32,000 nucleotides of DNA from an uncultured Pelagibacteraceae bacterium (GTDB taxonomy: Bacteria; Pseudomonadota; Alphaproteobacteria; Pelagibacterales; Pelagibacteraceae). This document shows, piece after piece, positions 1-23,332 of the stretch. How positions within the stretch are numbered: the stretch's first letter is position 1; the number at the start of each line of letters is the position of its first letter. The stretch spans positions 5,596-37,595 of the forward strand of contig CACHWQ010000008.1 in the NCBI GenBank assembly GCA_902583645.1, given 5' to 3'. Below the pieces are notes generated by a model. That model was given only the letters and a program-made list of their open reading frames with translations. It was not told where the DNA came from and ran no database searches. A program made the position numbers and the translations under genes.

Positions 1-1181
1 CTGCAGCTGTTATTAAAGCTTTAACAATTGGTGAGTCTAGAGTTGTTCTATATAAAGTTTGTTTAATAGCTATAACTTTTTTATCATTTGCTGCTTGGTT
101 TAAAAATTCAATTACTGAGTCAAATGTTTCAAAAGGATGATGAACAACTAAATCTTTCTTTTTAATAGTTTCAAAAAAATTATCATTATATTCTTTTAAT
201 CTTTCAACTTCTCTAGGGGTAAAATGCTTAAATCTTAATTTTGGATTTTTTACTTTACATATTTGATCTATATCTTGAATTCCAACAAGGCCAGATACAT
301 CATAAATATAGTCAGGATTTATATCTAATTTATTAGTTATAAATCTTACCAATTCTTTATCGCTATTTTCAAGAACCTCTAAACGAACAATATCACCAGT
401 TCTACGTCTTTTTAAAGCCAATTCAAAAGATCTAACTAAATCTTCTGCTTCCTCTTGAATCTCTACATCGCTGTCTCTTATTACTCTAAAAATCATTTTC
501 TTTTCTAAATCATGATCTGGAAAAATTTCATTAGCAAAAAAACTTATTACGTCATCTAGAATAACAAACTTCTTATGATTTTTTGAAGACTCTATTTCAA
601 TAAATCTAGATAATGCTTTTGGTATTACAATTATTGAGTTTAAAATCCTTTTTTTTATTTTTTTTTCTTAACTTCATTACAATTGCTCTTCCTTGATTGA
701 TTATAAATGGAAATGGGTGTGCAGGATCAATTGCTGATGGTGTTAATAAAGGGTAAATCTCTTCTTTAAATATTTCTAGAAGTTTTTTTTTATCCTTAGT
801 ATTTAAATTAACTGGTTTAACTAAACTGATATTATTTTTTTTTAATTCCATAATCAGTTTAATAAAAATTTTATTCTGTTTTTTTAATAAATTCTTAGTT
901 TCAAGCACTACTTCATCCATTTGCTCTTCAGGTGTCAAACCATCAGAACTTAATGATTCAACTTCTTGTTTTATTTGACTATATAACCCAGCAACACGGA
1001 CCATAAAAAATTCATCTAGATTAGACCCAGCAATTGATAAAAACTTTACTCTTTCATAAAGAGGATTTTCGATATTTTGCGCCTCTAAAAGTACTCTGTC
1101 GTTGAATTTTAACCAAGAAAGCTCTCTATTAATATATTTAGATTTTAGCTCTTCTTTATGTTGTTTTTTTAAAGCAGTCAT
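1..1181 (-). pseudogene. ppk: Polyphosphate kinase 1 (PPK1). The N-terminal roughly two-thirds is present and the gene runs off the left edge. As read, the frame is broken once, in the A9-T-A8 coding-strand tract (plus-strand T runs 649-656 and 658-666).
   Basis: ORF 606..1181 has the PPK1 N-terminus (ELSWLKFNDRVLLEA, NLDEFFMVRVAGL, DPAHPFPF). Hand translation of the minus strand 1..657 in the neighbouring frame continues colinearly (IVIPKALSRFIEI, FRVIRDSDVEIQEEAEDL, RRRTGDIVRLEV, VVHHPFETFDSVIEFL, IKQTLYRT). Removing one A from the A8 run joins the two frames. Confidence 0.85.
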
Positions 1182-1194
1182 ATATTTAGATTTT

Positions 1195-2384: not shown

Positions 2385-2387
2385 AAA

Positions 2388-3095
2388 TCATTTTTCTCCT
2401 GTTACAATTGGCTCGGTGCCCTTTGGTCTGTCACCTTCTAAATATTCACCTTTAACTAAGTAATAAATTTGTTCTGCAACATTTGTAGTATGATCACCAA
2501 TACGCTCAACGTTTTTGGTCACAAACAACAAGTGAGTTCCATCCTCTAAATTTTTTTCATTGTCTTTAAGATATTTTATAACATCTTGCATACAAAGATT
2601 TGTTAGATCATCTATTTGCTCATCACCTTCCCAAACATTTACTGCTATTGGCGCAGATCTTTCTAGATAAGCGTCTAATGTTGATTTTAATTGTTTTTGA
2701 ACATTGGTAGATACTCTATTTAGTGAATCTACCAAATTCTTTGGAAGATTTTCATTAAGCAAAAGTGTTCTCTTGGATATATTTTTTGCTAAATCACCTA
2801 TTCTTTCTAAATCTGAAGACATTTTCAAAGCCGTTACTGTCTCCCTTAAATCAATTGCCATAGGTTGTCTTAAAGCAATTAAATTTACAACTTGTTGTTC
2901 AATCAAGGCTTCATATTTATCTATTTTTTCATCATCTTGAATTACATTTTCAGCAATATCACTATTTCTTGTTGTAATGGCTTGAATTGCTTTACCTAAA
3001 GCATCCTCACATGCACTTCCCATCTTAACTATATTAGCATTCAGATTTTTTAGTTCTTCTTCGTAAGATTTAACTGTATGTGGTGCTTCAGACAT
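2388..3095 (-). CDS. phoU: Phosphate signalling modulator PhoU. As read, it is fused in frame to pstB within tracked ORF 2388..3851.
   Basis: The C-terminal 235 aa of the 487-aa ORF show the duplicated PhoU repeat ([12 protein letters not shown] and [12 protein letters not shown]). ATG 3095-3093 overlaps the restored pstB stop as TAATG. Confidence 0.85.
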
Positions 3096-3851
3096 TATCC
3101 AAACCTCCCTGTTATATAATCTTGCGTTTTTTTTATTATCAGGATTCTTAAATATTTTATCAGTAGATCCATGTTCAATCAATTGTCCTAAATGAAAAAA
3201 ACCTGTATTTTGAGAAACACGTGCTGCTTGAGCCATAGAATGAGTTACAATTATTATTGTGTGCTCTTTTTTTAACTCGTCAATCAATTCTTCAATTTGC
3301 GCTGTTGCTATAGGATCTAATGCTGAACAAGGCTCATCCATTAATATAACTTCTGGTCTTACAGAAATCGCTCTAGCAATACAAAGTCTTTGCTGTTGTC
3401 CTCCAGATAATCCAGTTCCAGGTTCATGTAATCTATCTTTTACTTCTTCCCATAGTGCAGCCTTTTTCAAACTAGTTTCAACAATTTCATCCATTTCTTG
3501 TTTTGATTGAGCCATACCATGAATTGTTGGACCGTAAGATACATTTTCATATAAAGTTTTTGGAAAAGGATTAGGTTTTTGAAAAACCATACCAATTTTT
3601 TCTCTTAGTCTTACTACATCACAACTTTTATCATTGATATTAAAGTCATTAATTAAAATTTCTCCTTTAACACTACAAATATCAATTACATCATTCATTC
3701 TATTAAGACATCTTAGGAAAGTTGATTTACCACAACCAGATGGACCAATTAATGCTGTTACTTGATTTTCATCAATATCTAAACTTATATTAAAGAGCGC
3801 TTGTTTTTTTCCATAAAAAACATCAACATCTTTTGCTTTAATCTTTATCAT
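3095..3851 (-). CDS. pstB: Phosphate ABC transporter ATPase PstB. The native C-terminus is recovered only after removing one A from the A8 run (plus-strand T8, 3127-3134).
   Basis: Walker [10 protein letters not shown], signature LSGGQQQRL, Walker [12 protein letters not shown]. The shifted frame after NPDNKK reads [10 protein letters not shown]-stop, the canonical PstB C-terminus, with stop at 3095-3097. Confidence 0.88.
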
Positions 3852-5122
3852 TTTAACTCCATTTTTTTTTCAAACTTATGTCTAATTATTTGGGCAAATA
3901 AATTCATTGTTATTAAAAAACCAAGTAAGACCATTATACACGCCGAGACTTTTTCTACAAATCCCCTTTCAGCACTTTCAGCCCAAATATAAATTTGAAC
4001 TGGTAAACTTGCAGCAGGATCCATAGGTGATCCAGGTATCGTGTTAACAAAAGCAACCATTCCAATTAAAATGAGGGGTGCGGTTTCTCCTAAAGCTTGA
4101 GCTAAACCAATTATTGTTCCTGATAACGTACCAGGCATAGAAAGAGGAACTGTATGATGCATTGTGGTTTGCATTCGACTTGCTCCCATAGCAAGTGCTG
4201 CCTCTCTTATACTTGGTGGAACCGCTTTTAATGATGCTCTAGCAGCTATAATTATTGTTGGTAAGGTCATTAAGGACAAAGTGATACCTCCAACTAATGG
4301 TGTAGATCTTGGTAATTGAAATATAGCCAATAAAACTCCTAACCCTAATAGACCAAAAACTATAGATGGAACTGCTGCTAAGTTATTTATATTTACTTCA
4401 ATAAAATCAGTAAATCTATTTTTAGGGGCAAATTCTTCAAGATAGATTGCAGCTAGAACCGCAACAGGAAAAGCTATCATTAAACAAACAAGTATAGAAA
4501 AAATTGAGCCCATAAATGAACTAGCTATACCAGCTAGTTCAGCTTCTCTTGAGTCTGCATTTGTAAAAAAACTAATATTAAATTTACTTTCAACCTTACC
4601 ATTTACAACAAGTTGATCAAAAATTTTTAATTGATAATCGCTTACTCTTCTTTGGTCTTCAGGTAAATCTCTTGGATAATTTCCTTTAAAGACTTGGTCT
4701 AAATCATCTGAAGCAGTTAGATAAACTTCTTTTGTTTTTCCTATTAAATTAGGGTCATTTAAAAGCTCATTTTTAATTTCTTTTTCGAAGAAATAAGACA
4801 CCATTCTCTTCAATTCATTTTCTTGATCCTCATTGGCATTTAGATCTAAATCAGCCATTGATTTTAATGCTATATCGTAATAATCGGCATCTTGTATATC
4901 TTCTTTAGAAGGGTTTTGTTCTAACATCATTAGTTCGGGATCAAAAGTTACTGGAACAATGAGCCAAGTTTTTTGAAAAGCTGAATAGCCAGTTGAAAAA
5001 ATTTTGAAAATAAAAATTGTTAAAAATAAAAGTGCCATAAAAATTGCACTTTGACCGTATAAGCGAAATCTCTGCTCAGCCTTGTATCTTTTATTTAATA
5101 ATTGTTCTTTATTTTTATTCAT
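3848..5122 (-). CDS. pstA: Phosphate ABC transporter permease PstA, long form with a large periplasmic loop.
   Basis: Permease core with the EAA-like loop ([15 protein letters not shown]). The position between pstC and pstB fits. I prefer ATG 5122 (MNKNKEQ), which gives an ATGAATAA 8-nt overlap with the pstC stop; the tracked start 5146 is possible. Confidence 0.85.
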
Positions 5123-6500: not shown

Positions 6501-6535
6501 AGAATCTCCTTTATTGAGGACTGTACTCTTAATTT

Positions 6536-6569: not shown

Positions 6570-6593
6570 AATCATTTGTTAACTGAGGAATAA

Positions 6594-7625: not shown

Positions 7626-7695
7626 TATCTTTAATCCTTTCTTTATTTTTAATTTAAAAGATTGCTGACAAGTATAAATTTATTGAATCTTTAAT

Positions 7696-7723
7696 ATTAC
7701 AGAATTGTTACACTTTTGTTAAA
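7696..7723 (-). promoter_or_regulatory. Candidate Pho box: three direct hexamer repeats at 11-bp phasing upstream of pstS.
   Basis: The minus strand reads TTTAAC-aaaag-TGTAAC-aattc-TGTAAT, 70-98 nt upstream of the pstS ATG. The geometry resembles PhoB binding sites (direct repeats, 11-bp period). A 15/17 identical copy lies upstream of plcP. Confidence 0.5.
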
Positions 7724-7734
7724 AAGGTAACTTT

Positions 7735-8343
7735 TTAGTTGTATTTTTTTGATATAATTATCTGATCAATATCACTTTCTAGGCCACCAATACATGAAAC
7801 AGGGTTTACCTGTTCATTAAGAGCTAGTTCATTGCTTGGACGTAAAGTTATTTCTAGTTTTACTAAGTTTACTAATTCTTCTCTAATTTCTTCATCATAT
7901 CTCCAGCTTGGCCATGAACTTGGGGTTGAAAATATAGAGGTTAAATAACTTGTAGCCATAGTATATCTGTAATTACTCAAATTTTCATTCCTCAATAAAA
8001 AATCTCTTACAGAATTAAAAATATTTTTACATCTAAAAGAATCTGAAAAATAATTTTCCTTCTTGAGATTTTCATTCATAGGAACAGAAACAATTAAATC
8101 AATTGAATTTTTAGAATACGAGGTAACTACGTCTGTATAAAATTCATCTTCAGTAACTTCTAAATGATCTTTTATAGAAGGATATGAGGTTTTTAAATCT
8201 GCTTCTAATCTAAAAATTCCAATATCAAAAACTGTAAGTTGCTGATTTCTTAATAATGTTGTGATATCTTTAGAAAAAACACTTGTTGTTATAGAACTTA
8301 ACAAAAAAGCAAAAATCAAAATATTTTTGAATATTTTAACCAT
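7735..8343 (-). CDS. Hypothetical secreted/periplasmic protein of unknown function.
   Basis: 202-aa ORF with an N-terminal signal peptide (MVKIFKNILIFAFLLSSITTSVFS) and two Cys residues. I recognise no family motif. It sits between phoR and pstS. Confidence 0.6.
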   Translation of the reverse strand: MVKIFKNILIFAFLLSSITTSVFSKDITTLLRNQQLTVFDIGIFRLEADLKTSYPSIKDHLEVTEDEFYTDVVTSYSKNSIDLIVSVPMNENLKKENYFSDSFRCKNIFNSVRDFLLRNENLSNYRYTMATSYLTSIFSTPSSWPSWRYDEEIREELVNLVKLEITLRPSNELALNEQVNPVSCIGGLESDIDQIIISKKYN

Positions 8344-8433
8344 ATAAAAAATTAATTAAAAGATTAACATTAATCAAGTAAAGAATTGTTAAAAAAACCT
8401 TCTAAAACTATTACAATATAATACTTTTTAAAT

Positions 8434-9580
8434 TTAAGTTTTCGCTGGTAAATAAATTTGAATTTCAGTTCCTTGGTTTTCCTCACTTAGAATCTCATAG
8501 TGTCCACGATGTTGAGTAACTATATGTTTAACAATAGCTAATCCTAAACCAGTTCCACCAACCTTATTACTTTGTTCAAGATCTACTCTAAAAAATCTTT
8601 CTGTAATTCTAGAAATATATCTTTGAGGAATGCCAACACCTTCGTCTTTAACACTGATCATAAAATTTTTTTCTAACAATTTACCATCACTAATTTCACT
8701 TGATATAAAAATAGACTTATTTTCCTTTGAATACTTAATTGCATTATCTAAAAGATTAGAAAAAACAGTTTGTAATTTTTTTTCATCTCCAATAACAATT
8801 GTTGGATTTGTGAGAGATAAATTAATATTTAATTTCTTTTTTTTTAAAACAATCTCAAAATTACTGATGATTGTTTTGAAAAGATCATTTATATTAACTA
8901 AAGAGTTTGGCCTTATGTGTTCTTCTAATTCAATTCTTGTGAGTATTAAAAGATCATTAATTAAATTTTCCATTCTATTTGATTGATCAGTCATTATTTT
9001 CATAAATTTTTTTTTTGCTTTATCGTCTTCTGCCGCTGGACCTTCAATAGTTTCTAAAGATCCTTTGATAGCCATCAAGGGTGTTCTTAATTCATGGCTT
9101 ACATTGGCGACAAAATCAGTTTTAAATTTTTTGTGCTTTTGTAATTTCAGTAAAGTCTTTTAAAAATAACACAACAGAATCTGGTTCAGTAAATAAATGA
9201 GTTGGACCAGGAATAATATAAATTTTATAAAATTGATATGATGGCAAGCCTATTTCAATATCAATATTTTTTGTTTTATTTTCAACTATAGCTTTTTCAA
9301 TATTTTCTATTAATTCTGGTTTTCGAATTACAGATGATATGTTTTTATCAATTAAACTACTACCAAATCTTTTTAATGCACTTGGATTAGCATATTTAAT
9401 TATGTTAAATTTATTTAATGCAAAAAACTGATCCTCAAGCTCATCGATAATTACTCTTTTTGTTTTTTCTTCTCTTTTGTTAATTATTGTGGCGGTATTT
9501 ATTGGTTTGTTTTTTTTTTTGATTAAGTAGATATAGAAGATAAATTATAACAACTATAAGTAGAATGACGAAATATTCCA
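8434..9580 (-). pseudogene. phoR: Phosphate regulon sensor histidine kinase PhoR. As read, it is split into three frames by two homopolymer breaks (plus-strand T6 9127-9132 and T11 9510-9520).
   Basis: The tracked ORF 8434..9078 carries only the N, G1 and G2 boxes (NLLDNAIKY, DEGVGI, GGTGLGLAIVKH). The H-box FVANVSHELRTP lies just upstream in the same frame. Hand translation gives a PAS-like segment (9122-9544; ends DSVVLFLKDFTEITKAQK) in a second frame, and the TM start MEYFVILLIVVIIYLLYLLNQKK (ATG 9580) in a third frame. Removing one A at each tract yields one ORF of about 381 aa. Confidence 0.85.
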
Positions 9581-9645
9581 TAAATTTAGATAGGTTAATT
9601 TTGCATCATTACACTTTTTAATGCAAACAAATTAAGAAAAATTAG

Positions 9646-10653
9646 CTAACGATTTGGTGAAATATTATTAAAAAATATTTTTGCTGTTTCTTCCCATGTG
9701 AATTTTTTTGCAAATTCAAGACAATCATTTCGATCAACTTTTAAAGCTTTATAAGCTGAAACTTTAAGATCATTATCTAGACAATCTATTTTGGAGCCTT
9801 CAAAAATATCTTTAGGACCTGGAACGGGATACGCAGCAACAGGCGTACCGCAATTTAAAGCCTCAGTAACTACAATTCCAAATGTATCTGTTTTACTAGG
9901 GAATACAAAAACATCAGAAGATGCAAAATATGATGCAAGTACACCATTTGTTTTTTCTCCTAAAAATATATCTCTAGGGAATTCTTCTTTTAATTTTTTT
10001 AAATCGGGTCCTTTTCCTATTATTATTTTTGTACCTTCTAAATCACATTCTAAAAAAGCTCTTATATTTTTCTCAACAGCAACTCTTCCAACATAAATCC
10101 AAATTGGTCTTTTGTGGGGTAAATTAATTTTTTGAGGTTTTTTAAAAGCTCCGTGATTTCCTCCTCTGGTCCAAGTAATCATTTTATTATTATCTATACC
10201 TATATCGATTAATTCTTTTCTCATAGATTCTGTTGTTACTAAAATTCTCTCAGCCTTATTATGAAAGTTTGCTAAGAATTTTTCAGCCCATTTTGCAGGT
10301 ATAATTGGAAAGTATAGTTTAAGATATTTATCAAACCTTGTATGAAAACTCGTAGTAAATTTTAGATTATTTTTTAAACAATATCTTCTTGCCATAATCC
10401 CAATGGGACCTTCGGTAGCGATATGAATTGCATCAGGTTTGATTTTCTTTATTAAACTACCAACTCTTGGCCATACATTTATAGATAACCTTATTTCATT
10501 ATATTTAGGCATCGGAAAGGTTAAAAATAAATTTGGAGTAATATATTCTATAGTATGACCTTGTTCTTTTAAGATATTACCTGTTTCATGCAAGGTTCTT
10601 ACGACACCATTTACTTGTGGAAAATATGCATCTGTAGCAATTAAAATTTTCAT
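9646..10653 (-). CDS. agt: GT4-family glycosyltransferase, Agt-like glycolipid synthase (glucosyl/glucuronosyl-diacylglycerol).
   Basis: GT-B fold motifs (MKILIATDAYFPQVNGV, FVFPSKTDTFGIVVTEALNCGTPV). It starts 3 nt downstream of the plcP-like gene, matching the plcP-agt pairing described for marine bacteria under P stress. Confidence 0.75.
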   Translation of the reverse strand: MKILIATDAYFPQVNGVVRTLHETGNILKEQGHTIEYITPNLFLTFPMPKYNEIRLSINVWPRVGSLIKKIKPDAIHIATEGPIGIMARRYCLKNNLKFTTSFHTRFDKYLKLYFPIIPAKWAEKFLANFHNKAERILVTTESMRKELIDIGIDNNKMITWTRGGNHGAFKKPQKINLPHKRPIWIYVGRVAVEKNIRAFLECDLEGTKIIIGKGPDLKKLKEEFPRDIFLGEKTNGVLASYFASSDVFVFPSKTDTFGIVVTEALNCGTPVAAYPVPGPKDIFEGSKIDCLDNDLKVSAYKALKVDRNDCLEFAKKFTWEETAKIFFNNISPNR

Positions 10654-10656
10654 TAA

Positions 10657-11469
10657 CTATGAAGCTTTTTTTAAGTCTTCAGTTTTAATAGGTTTAATTA
10701 TATCTTTAGTGTCTAAATATTGTTCTCTTATTTTATCCCAATATAATATTTCAAAACTACCATCATAATTTTCAGCTAATGCAGTACAAGATTCAACCCA
10801 GTCTCCACAATTTAAATAATTGACACCATTAAAATCTCTATCCTCAGCATGATGGATGTGACCACAAATTATTCCATCAAACTTTTTTCTTTTTGCATAA
10901 TCTGAAACTGTTTTTTCATATTCACCAATATATTTGACTGCGTTTTTGACTTTATACTTTAAAAATTTTGCAAGGGACCAATATTCTTTTCCTCTCAACC
11001 TTCTAAAAAAGTTAATTATTACATTAAATTGTAACAATAAATTATATGCTATTGATCCAATTTTAGATAACCATTTAGCATGTTTCATTACTCCATCCCA
11101 AGCATCACCATGGACAACAACATATTTTTTTCCATTATTTGTTTCATGAATTACTCTATTTAACATATGAATATCACCAAAATGCATTGGAATAAATTTC
11201 CTTAACATCTCGTCATGATTACCCATTATGTAGAACACTTTAGTCCCATGTCTTGCTTTTCTTAAAATTTTTTGGATTACATCATTATGTTCTTGAGGCC
11301 AAAAAAAACTTTTTTGCATTGCCCAGATATCAATAATGTCTCCTACAAGATAAAGATTTTCAGATCTTGAATTTTTAAAAAACTCTAAAATTTTATTCGC
11401 CTGACAACCTTTGGTACCTAAATGCAAATCAGAAATAAATATACTCTTATATTTTAATATATTAGGCAT
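10657..11469 (-). CDS. plcP: LpxH-family metallophosphoesterase, PlcP-like phospholipase C for phosphate-starvation lipid remodelling.
   Basis: Calcineurin-like phosphoesterase motifs (SDLHLG, GDIIDIW, GNHD, VVHGD, GHIH). It forms an operon with a GT4 gene, adjoins the Pho cluster and has a Pho-box-like motif upstream. Confidence 0.75.
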   Translation of the reverse strand: MPNILKYKSIFISDLHLGTKGCQANKILEFFKNSRSENLYLVGDIIDIWAMQKSFFWPQEHNDVIQKILRKARHGTKVFYIMGNHDEMLRKFIPMHFGDIHMLNRVIHETNNGKKYVVVHGDAWDGVMKHAKWLSKIGSIAYNLLLQFNVIINFFRRLRGKEYWSLAKFLKYKVKNAVKYIGEYEKTVSDYAKRKKFDGIICGHIHHAEDRDFNGVNYLNCGDWVESCTALAENYDGSFEILYWDKIREQYLDTKDIIKPIKTEDLKKAS

Positions 11470-11531
11470 TTAAAAATCTTTTTTTTAACACAACTGTAAC
11501 ACGAATCATGTAATTCTTATCTCATTCAAAT

Positions 11532-11548
11532 GTTACAAATTTGTTAAA
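11532..11548 (-). promoter_or_regulatory. Candidate Pho box upstream of plcP-agt.
   Basis: The minus strand reads TTTAAC-aaatt-TGTAAC, 62-79 nt upstream of the plcP ATG. It is 15/17 identical to the first two repeats of the pstS site. Confidence 0.45.
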
Positions 11549-11567
11549 AATTATTTAAGAAATAATT

Positions 11568-12452
11568 ATGTTATATTGTTTAATTTATAATCTAAACTCT
11601 TCTTCAGGAAGAAAATCACAATTCATAAATAGAGTTTTATCTAAGTTAAAAGAAAATAATTCTGTAGACTACTTTGAGACAAAAACAACAAATCAAGCTA
11701 AAGAAATTTTTAGAAATTTTAATCAAAAAAAATACGATCGACTAATAATAGCTGGTGGCGATGGATCGGTATCTTTTGCAATTAATGAACTAATTAAAAA
11801 TGATTTTAACTTTAAACACGATTTTGCCATAGGTTATATACCCGCTGGTACAGCAAATTTACTTCAAGCTGAATTATCAATGAATAAAAAAGTTGATGAT
11901 ATAGTTAATGTATTGATTTCAAACAATTATAAAACCTCTAATCTTGTAAAAATTAACGAAAGTTATTTCTTTTTAATGGCTGGTATAGGATGGGATGCAA
12001 AAATTGTTCATTCAATTAATTCAAAAATTAAAAAGATTCTTGGTAAAATTATATTCGGCATCAAGGGTTTTCAGTATTTCTTATTTATGAATAATAAAAA
12101 ATTAAATGTTACTTTTGATGGACAATTTTATCAAGCAGACTGGATATTATCCTCAAATACCAAATATTACGCTGGCCATCATAAAATAAATAAAACAAAT
12201 ATTTTTGAAGATAAATTAGTTACTTATATATTTAAGGATTTGACTAGAATCAATTTATTATATTCCATATTTTTAATAATCCTTAATGGCGACTTAAGTA
12301 AAAACAAAAATGTTATTACTACTTATTCTCAAAATATCACTATTGAAGGAAATGATTTAATACCTGTTCAAATTGACGGGGATAATTTTGGTTCATATAA
12401 AAAAATTCATTTAAATCAGTCAAATAAAAAAATGAATTTTCTTGTAAAATAA
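11568..12452 (+). CDS. Diacylglycerol-kinase catalytic-domain lipid kinase (YegS/BmrU/LCB5 family).
   Basis: DAGK_cat motifs (IIAGGDGSVSFAINEL, GYIPAGTANLL). It is transcribed divergently from plcP. Confidence 0.7.
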   Translation: MLYCLIYNLNSSSGRKSQFINRVLSKLKENNSVDYFETKTTNQAKEIFRNFNQKKYDRLIIAGGDGSVSFAINELIKNDFNFKHDFAIGYIPAGTANLLQAELSMNKKVDDIVNVLISNNYKTSNLVKINESYFFLMAGIGWDAKIVHSINSKIKKILGKIIFGIKGFQYFLFMNNKKLNVTFDGQFYQADWILSSNTKYYAGHHKINKTNIFEDKLVTYIFKDLTRINLLYSIFLIILNGDLSKNKNVITTYSQNITIEGNDLIPVQIDGDNFGSYKKIHLNQSNKKMNFLVK

Positions 12453-12478
12453 TTATTCGATTATATCTGATTTATTTA

Positions 12479-13576
12479 TTAATTTTTAGATATAATATTT
12501 AATATATCCTTACCATCTATCTTTACTGGATTATTGCCTAATCTTAACAAATTTATACCTTTTAAAACATCCTCAGAACTTTTAATTATATCTATATTAA
12601 ACTTTGTTAAATCATCCTCTAAATTTGCTTTTTTTTTTATTAAAGAAATTTTAGAATTGAAACTATTAATGTCCTGAACATCAAATAAATTAAATATTAA
12701 ATCAAATCTTTTTTTTAAATCAAAAGAAGTTACGGATTTATCTAAATTATCGAAGTTAAATTTAAAAAATTTCTCAAAAAATAAGCTAACTGCATGTCCG
12801 TGACTAATATTAAATAGAGATGTAAATGGATAAGATGCAGCATGTGGGGCAGTAGTTTTAGATATGCTAATTGCTTTACCTGCTAGATTTGAAGCAATAC
12901 TCATCTCTGTTGCATTTTTCATGTTTGGATCGTTAATAAAAGATATAAAACTGTTAACAGAAACTCTTAAAGACTTTGAAGCATATTCAACGCTTTTATC
13001 GTTAGATTTTTTTGACACTAAAGACTCTAAGGCTTGAGCTATAGCATCAAAGCCTGATGATGCTTTTATTTTGTTTGGCGCAGATATTAAAAATTCAGGA
13101 ATTAGGAAAAAATGATCTGGAATTAATAATTCACTTTCAAAAGAGTGTTTAATTCCATTAACATAAATAACTGCATTAGAAGTCACTTCCGCACCAGAGC
13201 CTGCTGTTGTAGGTACAACTGCTAATTTTGTATATTTATTTTTAAACGGATAAGTGTAATTTACAATTAACTCAGCAAGATCGGGTCTAATTTCAACTAC
13301 ATTAGCTATTTTAGCGTAATCGATTACAGCACCTCCACCAATAGCCAAAAATAAATCAGGTTTAAAATTTTTGATATCTTTAATAATTTCAATCAACTCT
13401 TCAAGAATTGGAATTTCTGATTTTTTATAAAATAACTTTATCTCCTTGTTAACAATATTTTTAAGTAGATTTTCAGCACCAGAATTAACAAAAGATTTTT
13501 TGCCACATAAAACAAAAATTTTTTTAAAACTTTTGTCGTTTATGTATTTTAAGATATCTTCACTTGAATTAATCAT
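12479..13576 (-). CDS. Iron-containing (group III) alcohol dehydrogenase, a probable phosphonoacetaldehyde reductase (PhpC/FomC-like).
   Basis: Fe-ADH motifs (GGGAVIDYAK, TTAPHAASYP, ISHGHAVS). Its ATGA overlap with the ppd stop indicates translational coupling within the phosphonate cassette. Confidence 0.7.
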   Translation of the reverse strand: MINSSEDILKYINDKSFKKIFVLCGKKSFVNSGAENLLKNIVNKEIKLFYKKSEIPILEELIEIIKDIKNFKPDLFLAIGGGAVIDYAKIANVVEIRPDLAELIVNYTYPFKNKYTKLAVVPTTAGSGAEVTSNAVIYVNGIKHSFESELLIPDHFFLIPEFLISAPNKIKASSGFDAIAQALESLVSKKSNDKSVEYASKSLRVSVNSFISFINDPNMKNATEMSIASNLAGKAISISKTTAPHAASYPFTSLFNISHGHAVSLFFEKFFKFNFDNLDKSVTSFDLKKRFDLIFNLFDVQDINSFNSKISLIKKKANLEDDLTKFNIDIIKSSEDVLKGINLLRLGNNPVKIDGKDILNIISKN

Positions 13577-14670
13577 TTTTTCATAAATTGATTCTTTATT
13601 TTAATCAAATTGTCTGGTCTAGGTAGTTTTTTAATTTTACTATTAGTTACTTTAACCTCAAAAAAAGCAGGTCCATTTATTTTAATAAAATTGTTAGTTA
13701 TTTTTAATAAATTTTGCTTATTTTTAATTGAATAAAATTTTTTAAAACCTAAACTTTTAGATAGTTTTTCAAAATCTATATTGTTAGCATTAGTGCTTTG
13801 TCCGCCTACAGAGTCATGTGAGTTGTTATTTAATAAAATATATTTAAAATTTTTATTGGCAAAATTACCAGCTGTCATAATCGAGCCTAAATGCATTAAA
13901 AATGAACCATCGCCATCTATACAAAAAGTTTTATTTTTAGAGGCTAATGAATAGCCCAAAGCAACCGATGAAGTATGACCCATGCCACCAACCATATAGA
14001 AATCTTTACTTTTGTTTAAATTAAATTTTTTTCTCAAGTACATTAATTCTCTTGAATTATATCCAGTACTAGAAATGACTTTTGATTTAGATGGAATTTC
14101 TTTAATTAAAGTTTTGAGAAAATATTCTTTGTCTAAACTATAAAAGTCTTTTTTAAAGCTTGATTTACTATTTTTGTGAAGAGTGCCCTGTTCAATTAAA
14201 CAAGCGACTATGGATTGATTTTTTTTTGCATATTTAATTTGCTTATCAAATTTTTTAATATCTTTATTTGATCTTAAAATGGTATATTTAATATTTAATA
14301 GTTTTAAAATCTCTCTAGTAATTTTACCTTTTACATTATGCTGCGGTTCATCTTTAACTCTTGGTGAACCTCTCCACCCTATAATTAATATTAAAGGAAT
14401 TGAGTATACTTTCTTATGAGCTATGGATATTAACGGATTTAAAGCATTAGAAAGTCCTGAATTTTGCATGTAGATGCATGGAATTTTTTTTGTTGAAAGA
14501 TAATGACCTATTGCAATTGAAACTGCGGAGCCTTCGCTAGTTGCAATAATATGATTTCTTTGATTTTTTAAATAAGAAGATAATTCTTTTAAAACACTAT
14601 CAGGTACACCAGTAAAAAAATTAGTGTTATTTTTTTTTAATAAGTTAATTAAAGTATTAACTTTAATCAT
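13573..14670 (-). CDS. ppd: Phosphonopyruvate decarboxylase (thiamine-diphosphate dependent).
   Basis: N-terminal FFTGVPDSVLKEL and the TPP motif GDGSFLMHLGS...LLNNNSHDS. It overlaps the PEP mutase stop by 8 nt (ATGATTAA). Confidence 0.85.
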   Translation of the reverse strand: MIKVNTLINLLKKNNTNFFTGVPDSVLKELSSYLKNQRNHIIATSEGSAVSIAIGHYLSTKKIPCIYMQNSGLSNALNPLISIAHKKVYSIPLILIIGWRGSPRVKDEPQHNVKGKITREILKLLNIKYTILRSNKDIKKFDKQIKYAKKNQSIVACLIEQGTLHKNSKSSFKKDFYSLDKEYFLKTLIKEIPSKSKVISSTGYNSRELMYLRKKFNLNKSKDFYMVGGMGHTSSVALGYSLASKNKTFCIDGDGSFLMHLGSIMTAGNFANKNFKYILLNNNSHDSVGGQSTNANNIDFEKLSKSLGFKKFYSIKNKQNLLKITNNFIKINGPAFFEVKVTNSKIKKLPRPDNLIKIKNQFMKK

Positions 14671-15394
14671 TTTTTATAAGATTAATTATTTTTTTTATTG
14701 GAATTATTTTTTTATCCGCTTCAAGTGCTCTACTATTTTTTAATATAGTTCTGGCTGTATTTTGCATGGCTGGATAAGCTGACCTTAGTAATTGATTTGC
14801 GTAAATTACTAGTTTAAATCCATTTTTAATTAAATCTTTTTCATAAACTTTAGAATAAGTGGATGGAACCGAAACTAAAGGTATAAAATTTTTACTTTTC
14901 CTAAATTCCCTTGCAAAAGAAAAAATTTCTGCAGGGGTTTTTTCTTTACTATGAATTAAAATAGCATCAGCTCCTACTTTAGAATAAATTTCAGCTCGGT
15001 GTAAGGCATCTTTAAGTCCTTTGCCAACTATAAAACTTTCAATTCTAGCTATAACCATAAAATCCTGTGACTGTCTTGTATTACATACTTTTTTAATTTT
15101 ATTTGCAAATAATTTTGGTTTATCTTGCTTAGTGCCTGTCTGATTTTTAAATAATGAATTTTTTTTAAGACCAATTTTATCTTCCATAATTATTGCAGAC
15201 ACGCCAGATCGCTCTAAAGATCTTACTAAAAAAGGTAAATGTTCTATCAAACCACCATTATCTGCATCAAAAACTATTGGTTTAGTCGTAACATCCATCA
15301 AATCATTTAAAGATGAAATACGAGCTGAAAAAGATAATGATGAATTATCAGGAAGACCTTTGGTTGCTGAGTCAGTCAAGCTTGAAGACCACAT
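14663..15394 (-). CDS. pepM: Phosphoenolpyruvate phosphomutase (PepM) catalytic portion. This is the C-terminal fragment of a frame-broken cytidylyltransferase::PepM fusion.
   Basis: Diagnostic PepM motif EDK-X5-NS (MEDKIGLKKNSL), plus DADNGG and ARIESF. The in-frame sequence just upstream of the tracked Met reads KILEFDG, continuing the upstream ORF once one A is removed from the A8 run. Confidence 0.88.
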   Translation of the reverse strand: MWSSSLTDSATKGLPDNSSLSFSARISSLNDLMDVTTKPIVFDADNGGLIEHLPFLVRSLERSGVSAIIMEDKIGLKKNSLFKNQTGTKQDKPKLFANKIKKVCNTRQSQDFMVIARIESFIVGKGLKDALHRAEIYSKVGADAILIHSKEKTPAEIFSFAREFRKSKNFIPLVSVPSTYSKVYEKDLIKNGFKLVIYANQLLRSAYPAMQNTARTILKNSRALEADKKIIPIKKIINLIKND

Positions 15395-15398
15395 TCCA

Positions 15399-15965
15399 TC
15401 AAATTCTAAGATTTTTTTTATTTTTAATTATATTTGTTTTCTCAATAATTAGACCTGTTAGTGAATTGTGTGATTCCAGAATACGCACAATATCTTTAGA
15501 GTTCATTAATCTTTTTAATCTAGAAACACGGTTTTCAGGAGATGTAATGATATTAGACATCTCTTTTTTAATTAAGGTTGATGAAATATTTTTAGTATAT
15601 TTTGGTTCTATAAGTTTTCCTGACCATTTTTTAAGTGCTTTAATTACTCTCTCTCTAGTTTTTTTTTGAACACCTTTTTTCCAATCGTCTCCATGAACTA
15701 CAAAATTTGGTTTTATTAAATTAAGGTTTTCAACATAATCAAGTGTATTTTGTGGAATTACTTTTTTTACGAATTTAATATTTTCAACGACTACTTTTCT
15801 TTTTTCAAAGTTAAGATAAGGAATGTTTTTATAACTGGCTATAGCTTTATCTGTTAAAAGTCCCACATAAACGTCACCATATAAACTCGCTGTCTTTAAT
15901 ATATTGATGTGCCCTTTATGTAAAATATCAGCAGATAAACCAACATAAACTATTTTTTTTTTCAT
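15399..15965 (-). CDS. HxGH-type cytidylyltransferase domain (TagD-like) plus the first ~40 aa of PepM. This is the N-terminal fragment of the fusion.
   Basis: Motifs LHKGHINIL (HxGH), HGDDW and [10 protein letters not shown] (RTxGISTT-like), followed by PepM N-terminal sequence ([27 protein letters not shown]). The ORF ends 7 codons after the A8 tract (plus-strand T8, 15412-15419). Confidence 0.85.
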
Positions 15966-16012
15966 AATTAATTCTCACTATATAATTTTTATACATAAAA
16001 GCGCTAATATTT

Positions 16013-16534
16013 TCATTTAATTAATTTATTAATTTTATTTAACAATTGTTTTGATAAATCTTTTATGGATTTATCAAAATTATTTACTATTATAATGTCA
16101 GGGTTTTTAGGATATTCAGGCTTAATATTTATACCAACTAAGTTTTTTTTTATTTTATTTTGATATAATTTTTTTTTCTTTTTTGATTTTATTATTGTTT
16201 TCACATTACTTTTTATGAAAATCTCTACATAATTTTTAATATTTTTTTTATTCCACATCCTAGGTTTATCCATCATAGCTACAGTCGCAAAAATCAAATT
16301 TATATTTTGGTTGGTAATAAATTTTGCTAATTTACAATATTTTTCTGAAAGTATTTCTCTTTCTTTTAGAGAGTATCCTTTAAAGTTGAATATTCTTCTT
16401 AAATCATCACCACTTATTAGTAAGGTTGGTCCATACAACTTAATTAAATTTTTATGAATTGATTTAGCTAAAGTAGTTTTTCCTGAACCAGAAAGACCTG
16501 TTAACCAAAATAAAATTCCTTTTTTTTTATCCAT
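16013..16534 (-). CDS. cysC: Adenylylsulfate (APS) kinase.
   Basis: P-loop LTGLSGSGKTTLA and an APS-kinase-like length (173 aa). Confidence 0.8.
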   Translation of the reverse strand: MDKKKGILFWLTGLSGSGKTTLAKSIHKNLIKLYGPTLLISGDDLRRIFNFKGYSLKEREILSEKYCKLAKFITNQNINLIFATVAMMDKPRMWNKKNIKNYVEIFIKSNVKTIIKSKKKKKLYQNKIKKNLVGINIKPEYPKNPDIIIVNNFDKSIKDLSKQLLNKINKLIK

Positions 16535-16741
16535 TGTTCACTAAAAAATAAATATTTAATTTATACAATACTTTTTTTAATTATTAATATTTAATTACTT
16601 GATAATATATTTTATATCTATCCTATAAATATAATTAAAATCAATGTAAAACTGAAATATCTCAAATATGTTACTTATAATTAAATAGATTTGTGAAGTT
16701 AAACATTATAAATATAAAATTCTTCTGATAAAAATATTAAT

Positions 16742-17755
16742 ATGGAAATAAAAAAAAGATTAGTTTCATTTTTACGGTCAGGCCTTAGATGGAAATTAAT
16801 AAAATTATCCAAAATAATTAAAATAAACTTATATCCTAAAAAATTTAATTTAAGTATTTATTCCCATAAAATTATTTTCAATTTCATATTTAACGAAAAA
16901 TCTAAAAAAATTAAAAAAATTATTTCACAAAATATAATTGAACAACAAAAATATTCTAAAAAAAATTTAAAATTTCTTGTTTCACCGCCTGGAAGTGGAA
17001 GTACATTTGTAAGATGTATGCTAAGTAGTTATTTTGAAATTTATTATGGTATTGGTAATGGAATACCTAAGTACAATAATATAACTAATGAATGGATGTT
17101 CAGCGGATCACCAATTCTAAGTTCAGATTTGTTTAACTCAATAATAATTGATGAGTCTTTAAATAAAAATAATACAAATAAGTATTTTTCTAAGAAAGAA
17201 TTTTACAAAAATGCTATATTTTTTACTAGGTATCCTTACAAAAATTCAAAAATTGATTTGCACAATTTTAATAATTCAAAATTTATTGTTCTTTTTAGAG
17301 AACCGTATGATTGGATGATTTCACAGTACACAAGGTATGAAAAAAAAAAATATGTTGATAAAAAAAAAGTAAATGTGATTATGATCAAAGAATCTTTAAA
17401 TTACCTTAAAGGATATTATGATTTTTGGATAAAATATTCAAAGCTAAATAAAAAAAAAGTTTTATTCATTGATTACAAAATTCTTACAACAAAAAGTAAT
17501 AAAGCTTTTTTTGAAATATGTAAGTTTATCAATTATAAGATTTCAAATAAGGAATTAATTAACAACTGTGTAAAATATAATTCAAAAAAATATAGTTTAA
17601 AATTAATTAAAGCTAAATTTGAAGGAACCAGATTTTCAAATCCAAATGAAAGAAACAAAATAAAGACTAAGATTTCTAAACATTTGAATAAAGAAATTAA
17701 TAATTTAAATTTTGAAAAAATTTATAATGATCTTTTAAAAAAAGTTGTGATTTAA
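16742..17755 (+). CDS. Putative PAPS-dependent sulfotransferase.
   Basis: 5'-PSB-like loop VSPPGSGSTFVRCML and a 3'-PB-like LFREPYDWMISQY. It is divergent from the APS kinase gene and extremely AT/Lys/Asn rich. Confidence 0.55.
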   Translation: MEIKKRLVSFLRSGLRWKLIKLSKIIKINLYPKKFNLSIYSHKIIFNFIFNEKSKKIKKIISQNIIEQQKYSKKNLKFLVSPPGSGSTFVRCMLSSYFEIYYGIGNGIPKYNNITNEWMFSGSPILSSDLFNSIIIDESLNKNNTNKYFSKKEFYKNAIFFTRYPYKNSKIDLHNFNNSKFIVLFREPYDWMISQYTRYEKKKYVDKKKVNVIMIKESLNYLKGYYDFWIKYSKLNKKKVLFIDYKILTTKSNKAFFEICKFINYKISNKELINNCVKYNSKKYSLKLIKAKFEGTRFSNPNERNKIKTKISKHLNKEINNLNFEKIYNDLLKKVVI

Positions 17756-17799
17756 AGGTTTATTAATAATTATTTTTTAAAAGTAATAATAAATTAAAA

Positions 17800-18990
17800 C
17801 TAACTTACACGACCATATACATCTTGATATCTTACAATATCGCTTTCCTTTAAAATTGAGCCAACCTGAACTTCAACAATTTTAACAGGTTTTTTTCCCG
17901 GATTTTGAACTCTGTGGATTGCTTCTAATGGAATGAATATATGTTCACCTGGTTTTTTAACAATTATATCTTTGTTAAGAGTTATTTTAGCATTTCCTTG
18001 TGTCACTAACCAATGTTCAGCTCGGTGATGGTGTTTTTGCAAACTTAAAATGCCTTTTGGTTTTACATATAACTCTTTAATTAAAAACCCTTTTCCCTCA
18101 AATAGATTTGTATATCTGCCCCATGGACGGTAATACACATTTTTTTTCTTAATATATTTGTTTTTATTTTTGTCATACATTTTCAGAATTTCTTTCCAAC
18201 TACCAAGATCTGACCAAGGAATATTTAGTTTGATAGCATTAGTTTGTTTAGTTTTTTCTAGAATTGCATAATCAAAAGATTTAGCAGTCGCTTTTATAAA
18301 TGAAGCTTTATTTAAGTAATAAGTGTTTCCCTTATATTTTGCTTTATTAACTGCATTTAAACAATTTCTGTAAATTTTGGGCTGATATTTTTTAAAGTTA
18401 TTAATAATAGAATCTTTTCGAAGATAAAACATACCAGAATTCCAATAGCCTTTATTCTTTATAATTTGTTTAGCTTTAGCTTCTTTTGGTTTTTCAATAA
18501 ATCTAGTTACTTCGTTATTTTTTGTTAAAAAATAACCAAATTCACTAGAGGGCATTTTGGGTTTAATACCAAAAATAAAGATATTATTTTGAGTAAGTTT
18601 CTTTTGATTTTTTTTGATAGCTTTATTAAATATTCCGATCTTCTCTATTAAATGGTCTGCAGCTAAAAACATTAGAGGCTGTTGGGTAGGAATATCTTTT
18701 ATTAACGCTGCACTTAATATTGCTGGTGCAGTGTTTCTTTTTGTGGGCTCTAAAACAATCTTAAATTGTCTGAATTTATGTTTTTTGAGATGTTGTTTAA
18801 CTTGTTTTAAGTATTTAGAATTAGTGCTGATAATTGGATAATCGTAAATTGATGATTTTATTCTTTCAAGCGTTTTGCCTAACAAAGTCCAGTTTCCAAA
18901 ATCAATAAATTGTTTAGCCTGATGTTTTTTTTGTTTAGGCCAAAGTCTCGTTCCGGAGCCCCCACATAGAATAACAGGTCTTATTTTCAT
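17800..18990 (-). CDS. manC: Mannose-1-phosphate guanylyltransferase with a C-terminal cupin (ManC/CpsB type, compact).
   Basis: Nucleotidyltransferase motif ILCGGSGTRLWP and a cupin segment (RPWGRY, LSLQKHHHRAEHWLV). TAATG overlap with the ilvD stop. Confidence 0.8.
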   Translation of the reverse strand: MKIRPVILCGGSGTRLWPKQKKHQAKQFIDFGNWTLLGKTLERIKSSIYDYPIISTNSKYLKQVKQHLKKHKFRQFKIVLEPTKRNTAPAILSAALIKDIPTQQPLMFLAADHLIEKIGIFNKAIKKNQKKLTQNNIFIFGIKPKMPSSEFGYFLTKNNEVTRFIEKPKEAKAKQIIKNKGYWNSGMFYLRKDSIINNFKKYQPKIYRNCLNAVNKAKYKGNTYYLNKASFIKATAKSFDYAILEKTKQTNAIKLNIPWSDLGSWKEILKMYDKNKNKYIKKKNVYYRPWGRYTNLFEGKGFLIKELYVKPKGILSLQKHHHRAEHWLVTQGNAKITLNKDIIVKKPGEHIFIPLEAIHRVQNPGKKPVKIVEVQVGSILKESDIVRYQDVYGRVS

Positions 18991-20707
18991 TAAATATCTG
19001 CGTATGTCCTAACTTCTTCTTTTGCTCCCGGGTGTGTAGGTGCGCCAAGATAAGCGGGTCCAACGGTCTGAGCATACTTCCACAGTGTTCCATTACCAAA
19101 ATTAATTTTCTTAGGTTTCCATTTTTTTCGTCTTTTTGCTAATTCTTTTTTAGACAAACGAACATTTATTGTTCCTTTCTTTGCATCTAGATCAATAATA
19201 TCTCCATTTCTTAATAGAGCTATTGGTCCTCCAACTGATGCTTCTGGCCCAACATGCCCAATACAAAATCCTCTTGTTGCTCCTGAAAATCTTCCATCTG
19301 TAATTAGTGCAACTTTTTCACCCTTCCCTTGTCCGTATATTGCTCCTGTGGTTTGAAGCATTTCTCTCATACCTGGACCACCTTTAGGACCTTCGTATCT
19401 AATTATAATGATATCACCATCTTTATACTTTTTATTTTTAACAGCTTTGTAAGCGGCTTCTTCTGTATCAAAACATCTTGCCTTACCAGTAAATTGTAAT
19501 CTTTTTAAACCAGCTACTTTAACAATAGCTCCATCAGGTGCTAAATTTCCTTTTAAACCAACTACACCACCATCTGGAGATAATGGTTGATTATATGACC
19601 TCATAACTTTTTGATTTTTATTAAACTTAACATTTTTTAAATTCTGTCTCATAGTTTTACCTGTAACAGTCATGCAATCACCATGGATATATCCACCATC
19701 TAAAAGTGTTTTTAAAAGCATGGGAACACCACCAGCTTTCCACATATCTTTTGCTACATACTTTCCACCAGGTTTAAGATCTGCAAGATAAGGTGTTTTT
19801 TTGAATATTCTTGCAACATCCATTAAATCAAACTTAATTCCAGCTTCATTTGCAAGTGCTGGTAAATGTAGTGCTGCGTTTGTAGACCCGCCTGTTGCAG
19901 CAACAATAGTGGCTGCATTTTCTAAAGATTTTTTTGTAACAATATCTCTTGGTCTAATTTTCTTTTCTAATAAATTCATTACTGCTTTGCCGCTTTTTAA
20001 TGCATAAGAATCTCTTTGAGTATAAGGTGCAGGTGTTCCAGCAGAATATGGTAAAGCTAATCCAATTGCTTCAGATACACAGGCCATAGTGTTGGCCGTA
20101 AATTGACCCCCACATGCTCCTGCACTTGGACAGGCTTTTAATTCTAATTTTCTTAAAGCATGGGCTGACATTTTGCCTGCAGAAAATTTACCAACACCTT
20201 CGAATACATCGACAACAGTTACGTCTTTGCCATTAAATCTTCCTGGTAGAATAGATCCACCATAAATAAAAACACTTGGAACATTTAATCGAACCATAGC
20301 CATCATCAAACCTGGTAATGATTTATCGCAACCAGCTACACCAACCAAAGCATCATAACAATGTCCTCTAACTGTTAATTCAGTAGAATCTGCAATTACA
20401 TCTCTTGAAATCAATGATGATTTCATACCTTCGTGACCCATTGCTATACCATCTGTTACAGTAATAGTGCAAAATTCTCTTGGTGTTCCACCTGCTTGAT
20501 GGACACCTTTTTTAACAGATTGTGCTTGTCTCATAAGCGCAATATTACATGGAGCAGCCTCGTTCCACGTTGAAACTACACCCACAAATGGTTTCGCGAC
20601 ATCTTTTTCAGTAAGATCCATTGCATAGTAAAAGGATCGTTGTGGTGCTTTATCAGGACCTAATGAGGTATGTCTGCTTGGTAATTTTTTTTTATTAAAT
20701 TTTGGCA

Positions 20708-20708
<1 letters not shown>
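18990..20708 (-). CDS. ilvD: Dihydroxy-acid dehydratase.
   Basis: 572 aa with the IlvD/Edd signatures ([18 protein letters not shown]). Confidence 0.93.

Positions 20709-23332
<2,624 letters not shown>

Follow-up and report, generated by a model that had tools for sequence, protein, structure and literature searches.

A Fom1-type cytidylyltransferase::PEP mutase fusion gene in a SAR11 phosphonate island, split by one of six probable homopolymer length errors

Described systems and the identity of the enzyme

The closest described counterpart of the enzyme considered here is Fom1 of Streptomyces wedmorensis, which acts in fosfomycin biosynthesis and joins an N-terminal PF01467 cytidylyltransferase carrying an HxGH motif to a C-terminal PEP mutase (Ppm), the precedent for a bifunctional enzyme of this kind being Cho et al. 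(2017), as cited in PMC6697681. The PF01467 fusion is found in 23.6% of RefSeq Ppm enzymes (PMC6697681). The PntC-Ppm fusions (Rice et al. 2019) likewise combine a nucleotidyltransferase with Ppm and activate a phosphonate as a CMP conjugate for cell-surface tailoring (PMC6697681). However, their LicC-like nucleotidyltransferase belongs to fold family PF12804 rather than PF01467, and the characterised PntCs favour 2-AEP (PMC6697681). Each half of the fusion also has more distant kin, in the PEP mutase of Mytilus edulis (PDB 1pym/1m1b), which stands alone, and in the glycerol-3-phosphate cytidylyltransferase TagD (PDB 1coz), which shares the PF01467 HxGH nucleotidyltransferase fold family. Within Pelagibacterales, pepM, aepY and phpC have been reported to co-occur (PMC9381506), and SAR11 is a major predicted phosphonate producer (PMC8931226).

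The gene examined here lies on the minus strand at 14663..15965 of the window, by which is meant the whole 32-kb stretch of DNA that was analysed, and would comprise 1302 nt and encode 433 aa if a critical A tract were seven bases long. The sequence as read divides it between two minus-strand ORFs, 15399..15965 (188 aa) and 14663..15394 (243 aa), both of which were confirmed where the initial annotation had placed them. The 188-aa ORF contains the cytidylyltransferase domain (aa 1-135; 15561..15965, minus strand; PF01467, E 2.5e-12), with an HKGH motif at residues 16-19 (15909-15920, minus strand), and it runs, as had been proposed for an HxGH cytidylyltransferase, directly into the N-terminus of the PEP mutase. 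The first ~40 mutase residues (aa ~145-184; 15414..15533, minus strand), delimited by alignment to the mussel enzyme from its residue 6 onward, thus stay joined to the cytidylyltransferase ORF in the sequence as read. The rest of the mutase barrel (14663..15411, minus strand) matches 1m1b with E 3.6e-45, and the 243-aa ORF matches PF13714 (PEP_mutase) from profile position 33 on (E 1.5e-42). This ORF also contains the EDK-X5-NS motif that had been cited as diagnostic, in the form EDKIGLKKNS (15155-15184, minus strand), the corresponding residues E261, D262, K263, N269 and S270 being invariant in the fusion-family alignment. The mussel mutase has the same EDKX5NS motif and its catalytic domain is homologous over the whole length, but the SAR11 protein differs in carrying a 9-residue Lys/Asn-rich insertion exactly at the frame break. 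The 284-position model TIGR02320 is divided in the same manner, with positions 1-34 in the 188-aa ORF and positions 41-282 in the 243-aa ORF; the latter alone scores 315.9 bits, slightly below the equivalog cut-off of 319.55, whereas the joined protein scores 358.9 bits and exceeds it. A 118-aa antisense ORF (15313..15669, plus strand) was rejected as spurious, as it is entirely contained within the coding region of the opposite strand; in relatives, antisense ORFs of this type owe their presence solely to AT-rich codon usage.

On the identity of the protein, the initial annotation was correct. Its reading of the protein as a Fom1-type HxGH fusion is borne out by the alignment of the N-terminal domain to the Fom1 cytidylyltransferase structure 5x3d (E 2.2e-51), which is gapless and 59% identical (80/135), while matches to ECT (E 2.6e-14) and to TagD (E 7.5e-10) are both weaker. 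The domain is not a TagD: TIGR01518 reaches only 55.9-57.7 bits against a cut-off of 165.4. A PntC/LicC-type domain was likewise rejected, as the N-terminal domain matches PF01467 and PF12804 (MobA-like) is not among its matches. When the joined product is aligned with SAR11 fusions and with those of other phyla, the alignment is continuous over the junction, and the best 120 family members, which are 432-449 aa long (mostly 433-435), each contain both domains. These comparisons identify the protein as a fusion of a Fom1-type (PF01467) cytidylyltransferase with PEP mutase.

The phosphonate island and its proposed pathway

The genes surrounding the fusion are those of an established module. Immediately downstream, and sharing 8 nt with the end of the fusion gene, lies a phosphonopyruvate decarboxylase gene (Ppd/AepY; 13573..14670, minus strand), which scores 368.7 bits against TIGR03297 (cut-off 312.5) and which follows the fusion gene directly in nearly all related loci. 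Next to it is an Fe-dependent alcohol dehydrogenase gene (12479..13576, minus strand; PF00465 and PF25137), for which no NCBIfam equivalog cut-off was reached; its conserved synteny nonetheless makes it a probable phosphonoacetaldehyde reductase, in the PhpC/FomC role, that would make 2-hydroxyethylphosphonate (2-HEP). The trio of fusion, Ppd and Fe-alcohol dehydrogenase is kept in SAR11, Bacteroidales, Ignavibacteria, Planctomycetota, CPR bacteria and archaea. On its upstream side, the fusion gene adjoins an adenylyl-sulfate kinase-like gene (16013..16534, minus strand; PF01583; NF004041, 134.7 bits, cut-off 127), followed by a sulfotransferase-family gene (16742..17755, plus strand; PF00685, E 7e-8) that is kept in L001 and L003-L007 among the related loci. 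In ~10 SAR11 loci, a homologue of the kinase-like gene precedes the fusion gene at a distance of ~0.5-1.3 kb. Together these five genes form a 5.3-kb island, with the module sited between manC and the DAGK-PlcP-GT genes, the same site as in several related SAR11 loci. An Rfam scan of the window returned three tRNAs only, none of them near the fusion locus.

The Pelagibacterales PepM fusions, including P0066 of Candidatus Pelagibacter sp. RS40 (annotated as 'phosphoenolpyruvate mutase'), are 86-100% identical to the joined protein over its full length and have the same pepM-ppd-FeADH module, the sole difference being the extra A that breaks the frame here. Three of the relatives (P0023, P0033 and P0047) carry the JGI label 'phosphoenolpyruvate phosphomutase / 2-hydroxyethylphosphonate cytidylyltransferase'. 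Its gene content identifies the locus as the pepM-aepY-phpC module for 2-hydroxyethylphosphonate that is already known from Pelagibacterales.

The comparison allows a pathway to be proposed. The C-terminal PEP mutase domain would convert PEP to phosphonopyruvate, which Ppd and then the Fe-alcohol dehydrogenase would carry through phosphonoacetaldehyde to 2-HEP. The N-terminal domain, by analogy with Fom1, may then combine 2-HEP with CTP to give CMP-2-HEP, its 59% identity to the Fom1 domain being what suggests a CTP:2-HEP cytidylyltransferase activity. CMP-2-HEP would presumably serve as the donor for decorating a cell-surface macromolecule. Fom1 and the SAR11 fusion each adjoin a phosphonopyruvate decarboxylase and an Fe-alcohol dehydrogenase expected to supply 2-HEP, although the two systems differ in host, an actinomycete as opposed to SAR11, and in that the gene is split as read here. 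They differ further in the probable fate of the nucleotide conjugate, as CMP-HEP is presumably an end-use donor in SAR11 but a transient intermediate in the fosfomycin pathway. The window holds no equivalents of Fom3 (the B12 radical-SAM methylase), Fom4 (the epoxidase) or FomD, with no radical-SAM or epoxidase family match among its assigned ORFs, so that the product is not fosfomycin. This check covered ORFs of at least 90 aa, excluding antisense overlaps of longer genes, each assigned through Pfam/NCBIfam or through the gene calls of near-identical relatives; the sole exception to assignment was a conserved 202-aa ORF (7735-8343) that has no Pfam or NCBIfam match. The SAR11 cluster possesses a reductase and lacks an AEP transaminase, which points to 2-HEP.

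Origin of the frame break

The PEP mutase frame is interrupted across the barrel in the sequence as read, and the shift occurs at an A8 tract (15412..15419, minus strand; T8 on the plus strand) located exactly where it had been reported. Deletion of one A fuses the two ORFs into a product of 433 aa that matches P0001 with 100% identity along its entire length, and the join is therefore not a chance reading. The two domains thus occupy one polypeptide after removal of this base, as they do in every relative, but not in the window as read. The geometry given by the initial annotation is also accurate: the break falls at residue ~185, ~50 aa past the end of the cytidylyltransferase at residue 135 in the 5x3d alignment, and it detaches ~40 residues of a mutase domain that starts at residue ~145-150. 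The tract is A7 in all seven of the closely related loci L001-L007. In L001, the nearest relative at the DNA level (99.1% identity over 3553 nt), this difference of A7 against A8 is the only gap in the alignment. Exact-pattern searches for the A8 allele gave no match in GTDB species-representative genomes and none in metagenome contigs, where power was low, as the control A7 pattern itself was found in only 3 contigs.

Phosphonate decoration has been proposed to act at the cell surface and to influence mortality from grazing and phages (PMC8931226). Surface traits of this sort are often phase-variable, and RNA polymerase is known to slip on long A tracts. The tract could be read on this basis as a functional switch, either in phase variation of a surface-decoration pathway by slipped-strand mispairing or in a programmed event, such as transcriptional slippage on A8 or +1 ribosomal frameshifting, that yields the full-length fusion. 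However, the recurrent out-of-frame state that either form of switching should leave among relatives was found in 0 of 83 related loci, all 83 being in frame, and in relatives the A run of the loop ranges in length between 2 and 12 bases without ever altering the frame. The tract merely encodes a variable Lys/Asn-rich loop in a window of 32 kb and 28% GC, with 129 A/T runs of at least 7 bases. Further, identical +1 changes occur in housekeeping phosphate genes, which argues against an effect specific to this locus, and a functional switch is accordingly regarded as highly improbable.

Relative to sequences at least 99% identical to it, the window has six indels, each of which lengthens a T tract by one base (+1). 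The ppk gene is truncated by a +1 at 649..656 (minus strand; T8, T7 in relatives). A +1 near the 3' end of pstB (3127..3134, minus strand; T8, T7 in relatives) causes read-through into phoU, giving a 487-aa ORF (2388..3851), and another (3862..3870, minus strand; T9, T8 in relatives) changes the last residues of pstA. Two break phoR, at 9127..9132 (T6, T5 in relatives) and at 9510..9520 (T11, T10 in relatives), both on the minus strand, and the sixth is that in the fusion gene. At least six independent SAR11 single-cell genomes share 99.8% identity with the window from 591 to 12465, and the only indels common to the comparisons with all of them are the five single-T insertions in ppk, pstB, pstA and phoR. 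Removal of one base per site fully restores phoR (381/381), phoU (235/235), ppk (196/196) and the fusion (433/433), and restores pstB (250/251) and pstA (420/422) nearly exactly. In the 13-kb phosphate-gene loci to the left of the island, the single-cell genomes differ among themselves by 31-116 substitutions and 0-1 indels, the single indel being intergenic, whereas the window differs from them by only ~15-18 substitutions yet by 5 coding indels. The six changes are without exception insertions (sign test, p 0.03). All six are also insertions of T on the plus strand, although the strand bias (5/40 against 0/26 tracts, p 0.15) is not significant and is uninformative because most genes here lie on the minus strand.

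The initial annotation had implied that the break was of biological significance, and this part of it is not upheld: the extra A is one of six identical +1 insertions, and none of the 83 related loci is broken, so that the break is most likely a property of the sequence record and not of the organism. Very probably, then, the locus encodes an ordinary SAR11 Fom1-type enzyme, the break is one of six homopolymer length errors, and the gene carried by the organism is intact, with A7 and 433 codons. Homopolymer miscalling in this assembly is, on this comparative evidence, the most likely origin of the extra A.

The distribution of the insertions within the window speaks against a sequencing error. 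All six fall within 649-15419, and no frame break was detectable in 15.5-32 kb by a check of frame integrity; a search for relatives at least 99% identical to 18-32 kb gave best matches of at most 83% identity. Among T tracts of at least 8 bases, 5 of 20 carry an insertion in the left part as opposed to 0 of 25 in the right (15.5-32 kb; Fisher p 0.013), the counts of long T tracts being similar. Such clustering is not expected of errors that arise uniformly; it could be explained by local differences in coverage, by a mosaic assembly, or by real mutations retained only where the genes are dispensable.

The last of these possibilities leads to a reading in which the extra A is a genuine and very recent frameshift, pepM has been pseudogenised, and the breaks in phoR, pstA, pstB and ppk are real as well. 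Their source might be a SAR11 clone hypermutable at homopolymers, or a culture that had adapted to replete phosphate, in which phosphate-scavenging and phosphonate-synthesis functions were lost. Homopolymers are the expected hotspots of such mutations, and the mutLS mismatch repair genes are reportedly absent from SAR11, which would make genuine homopolymer indels more frequent. In addition, the breaks occur only in phosphorus-related genes, all within the left 15 kb, while the essential and transport genes of the right 16.5 kb are intact, a distribution that could result from selection acting on real mutations. However, the left 15 kb contains almost only phosphorus genes, and 'phosphorus genes' and 'left half' are consequently indistinguishable. 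Genuine loss would also require six independent events with no change of amino acid in the restored phoR, phoU, ppk and fusion products, all of them +1 insertions with zero deletions, and once phoR had been lost there would be no obvious selection for the remaining breaks. Natural single-cell genomes at similar divergence, moreover, have no coding indels. A genuine frameshift is thus considered unlikely. RNA polymerase slippage on lengthened A tracts has been described as a means of rescue in AT-rich endosymbionts. A form of the genuine-mutation reading may be constructed on this precedent, in which a homopolymer-prone SAR11 clone has had phoR, pstA, pstB, ppk and the phosphonate gene knocked out by six real insertions and slippage might partly rescue their expression, but the chance that this is so appears slim.

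Implications for SAR11 phosphonate synthesis

The PF01467-Ppm architecture and its SAR11 family are already described and annotated, and the enzyme is thus already known; with an architecture this common, the locus has little value as a discovery. Of more practical consequence is that apparent pseudogenes at A/T runs are systematic in this record, which has six +1 insertions in 15 kb, and calls of broken genes elsewhere in the genome should first be compared in tract length with close relatives. No obvious candidate for a CMP-HEP transferase was found within the 5.3-kb island. The underlying gene, if intact as the comparison with relatives suggests, is part of the module to which SAR11 is believed to owe its role as a major marine source of phosphonates (PMC8931226, PMC9381506).

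Identity of the cytidylyltransferase-PEP mutase fusion

Positions 14663-15965 of the minus strand hold two neighbouring ORFs, 15399..15965 (188 aa) and 14663..15394 (243 aa). The former carries a CTP_transf_like domain (PF01467, E 2.5e-12) with HKGH at residues 16-19 and ends in ...[28 protein letters not shown]; the latter matches PEP_mutase (PF13714, E 1.5e-42) only from profile position 33 on and contains EDKIGLKKNS, the EDKX5NS motif specific to PEP mutase (Ppm). Upon removal of one A from the A8 run at 15412-15419, the two are joined into a single 433-aa product through the junction ...[20 protein letters not shown]..., and this product is matched at 100% identity over its full length by the database protein P0001. 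ORF reading and Pfam thus bear out the initial annotation in its coordinates, both domain assignments, its motif and its one-base joining. That the break detaches roughly the first 40 mutase residues also holds, as positions 1-34 of TIGR02320, the NCBIfam PEP-mutase equivalog (284 positions, cut-off 319.55 bits), lie in the 188-aa ORF and positions 41-282 in the 243-aa ORF, which at 315.9 bits falls slightly below the cut-off; the joined protein, at 358.9 bits, exceeds it.

The best 120 homologues listed are 432-449 aa long and 86-98% identical, and all possess both Pfam domains; several are named Candidatus Pelagibacter 'phosphoenolpyruvate mutase' at source, and some bear the JGI label 'phosphoenolpyruvate phosphomutase / 2-hydroxyethylphosphonate cytidylyltransferase'. 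Among solved structures, residues 1-135 match the Fom1 cytidylyltransferase domain (5x3d) without gaps (E 2.2e-51, 80/135 identical), whereas ethanolamine-phosphate cytidylyltransferase and TagD are matched at only E 2.6e-14 and E 7.5e-10, respectively; residues 145-433 match mussel PEP mutase (1m1b; E 3.6e-45). Two other nucleotidyltransferase classes were rejected: the N-terminal domain reaches 55.9 bits against the glycerol-3-phosphate cytidylyltransferase cut-off of 165.4, and it belongs to PF01467 instead of the PF12804 fold of PntC/LicC-type enzymes. An alignment of fusions from SAR11, Ignavibacteria, Bacteroidales, Planctomycetota, a CPR bacterium, a Thermoplasmatales archaeon and a cyanobacterial MAG runs unbroken through the junction, with a mean column identity of 71%. 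Given these structure and model scores and the continuous junction, the Fom1-type architecture withstands the tests that had been proposed alongside it. Among RefSeq Ppm enzymes the PF01467 fusion is common (23.6%), and Fom1 is its characterised precedent (PMC6697681; see also PMC8942020). Neither the enzyme nor its architecture nor the SAR11 cluster is new, all having been described and annotated before.

Origin of the frame break

At the DNA level the closest relative is the metagenome contig L001 (99.1% identical over 3553 nt), which shows a single gap against the window: it has A7 in place of A8 at 15412-15419. A7 is likewise found in six further loci (L002-L007, 93-95% identical), and the fusion gene is split between frames in none of the 83 related loci. 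The loop in which the break falls is variable and Lys/Asn-rich and forms an insertion of 9 residues compared with mussel PEP mutase; its A runs vary among relatives from 2 to 12 bases, always in frame. Phase variation or programmed slippage at the tract therefore finds no support from relatives, and we regard it as highly improbable.

Similar changes occur elsewhere in the window. Compared with at least six independent SAR11 single-cell genomes, 591-12465 is 99.8% identical, and the only indels common to all those comparisons are five single-T insertions, all in T tracts of the window: T7 to T8 at 649-656, breaking ppk; T7 to T8 at 3127-3134, at the 3' end of pstB, with read-through into phoU as a 487-aa ORF (2388..3851); T8 to T9 at 3862-3870, altering the last residues of pstA; and T5 to T6 at 9127-9132 and T10 to T11 at 9510-9520, each breaking phoR. 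When every one of the six tracts is shortened by one base, the identity of the products to relatives is 381/381 for phoR, 235/235 for phoU, 196/196 for the part of ppk inside the window, 250/251 for pstB, 420/422 for pstA and 433/433 for the fusion. Over 13 kb, the single-cell genomes differ among themselves by 31-116 substitutions and only 0-1 indels, that indel being intergenic; against them, the window shows approximately 15-18 substitutions together with five indels in coding sequence. The six changes are insertions without exception (sign test p 0.03), and in comparable regions 5/66 A/T tracts with a true length of at least 7 are lengthened.

The simplest reading is sequence error: homopolymer length has very probably been over-called systematically in this record, the gene being intact with A7 in the organism. 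The genes hit are a sensor kinase (twice), two high-affinity phosphate transporter subunits, a polyphosphate kinase and the PEP mutase. Genuine mutations, retained only in phosphorus genes that the cell can spare, are the alternative; this is unlikely, as six independent loss-of-function frameshifts of the same direction and kind of site cannot plausibly have arisen in a lineage otherwise identical in protein. Most likely, the frame break is not genuine.

The insertions all lie left of 15.5 kb (Fisher p 0.013 for the left/right contrast in long T tracts), and no frame break is seen in the right 16.5 kb, where long T tracts are about as numerous; errors arising uniformly would not be expected to cluster in this way. 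The window is also mosaic: while the left flank (591-12465) is 99.8% identical to the single-cell genomes, identity to them drops to 74-83% in the right flank (17812-21982; manC, ilvD, valS), the change coinciding with the edge of the island. It points to a recombination breakpoint or else to a composite assembly, and uneven coverage or composite assembly could therefore explain the clustering. Within the right flank, manC encodes 396 aa versus 401 aa in relatives; a frameshift was ruled out, the difference being an in-frame 15-nt indel at 18510-18520.

The phosphonate island and its predicted pathway

The island, a 5.3-kb insertion at 12466-17811 between a diacylglycerol-kinase-like (DAGK-like) gene and manC, comprises five genes. 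Directly downstream of the fusion gene lies phosphonopyruvate decarboxylase (Ppd, AepY; 13573-14670; TIGR03297 368.7 bits, cut-off 312.5), followed by an Fe-alcohol dehydrogenase (FeADH, PhpC role; 12479-13576); upstream are an APS-kinase-family gene (16013-16534), which passes NF004041, and a sulfotransferase-family gene (16742-17755) that travels with the phosphonate module. The single-cell genomes closest on the left flank are without the island, manC there abutting the DAGK-like gene, and several related SAR11 loci possess it at the same site. In some SAR11 clusters (loci L038, L041, L042, L047-L050 and L056), a second, stand-alone cytidylyltransferase paralogue of ~135 aa, 45-54% identical to the fused domain, lies ~400 nt upstream of the fusion gene.

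Elsewhere in the window, a GT4 glycosyltransferase, an LpxH-like metallophosphoesterase and the DAGK-like lipid kinase (9646-12452) adjoin the phoR-pstSCAB-phoU-phoB operon and resemble the PlcP/Agt phosphate-starvation lipid-remodelling genes known from SAR11. Between phoR and pstS, a 202-aa ORF (7735-8343, minus strand) matches no Pfam or NCBIfam family and is conserved in place and length in all close single-cell genomes. The only Rfam matches in the window are tRNA genes at 23460-23530 (+), 23583-23655 (+) and 29758-29831 (-).

The order fusion-Ppd-FeADH is kept in nearly all of the 83 related loci, distant phyla included, and the Pfam/NCBIfam profile hits of the window ORFs include no AEP transaminase, radical-SAM methylase or epoxidase; together these point to a predicted pepM-aepY-phpC route to 2-hydroxyethylphosphonate (2-HEP). 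Co-occurrence of the three genes in Pelagibacterales has been reported (PMC9381506), and SAR11 is regarded as a major potential marine phosphonate producer (PMC8931226). Judging from sequence, the PEP mutase domain would convert PEP to phosphonopyruvate, Ppd would yield phosphonoacetaldehyde, FeADH would reduce this to 2-HEP, and the cytidylyltransferase domain, by analogy with Fom1, may form CMP-2-HEP, which might then be passed to a glycan or glycoprotein at the cell surface, the fate suggested for marine producers (PMC8931226). No transferase for CMP-2-HEP is evident among the five island genes. Roughly ten SAR11 loci carry an APS-kinase homologue ~0.5-1.3 kb upstream of the fusion gene; among the related loci, no non-SAR11 locus does. 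Sulfation of the same surface polymer is the simplest reading of the APS-kinase-like and sulfotransferase-like genes; that they act on CMP-HEP, in a step analogous to that from APS to PAPS, is purely speculative.

Were the break real, the cytidylyltransferase domain would remain whole in the 188-aa product, the 243-aa product would be without the first 40 of 284 TIGR02320 positions, with which the barrel would probably lose its first strand and helix, and the pathway would be without its entry step. The finding serves mainly as a caution when a 'pseudogene' is called elsewhere in this AT-rich record, and it directs attention to the CMP-HEP acceptor in SAR11.
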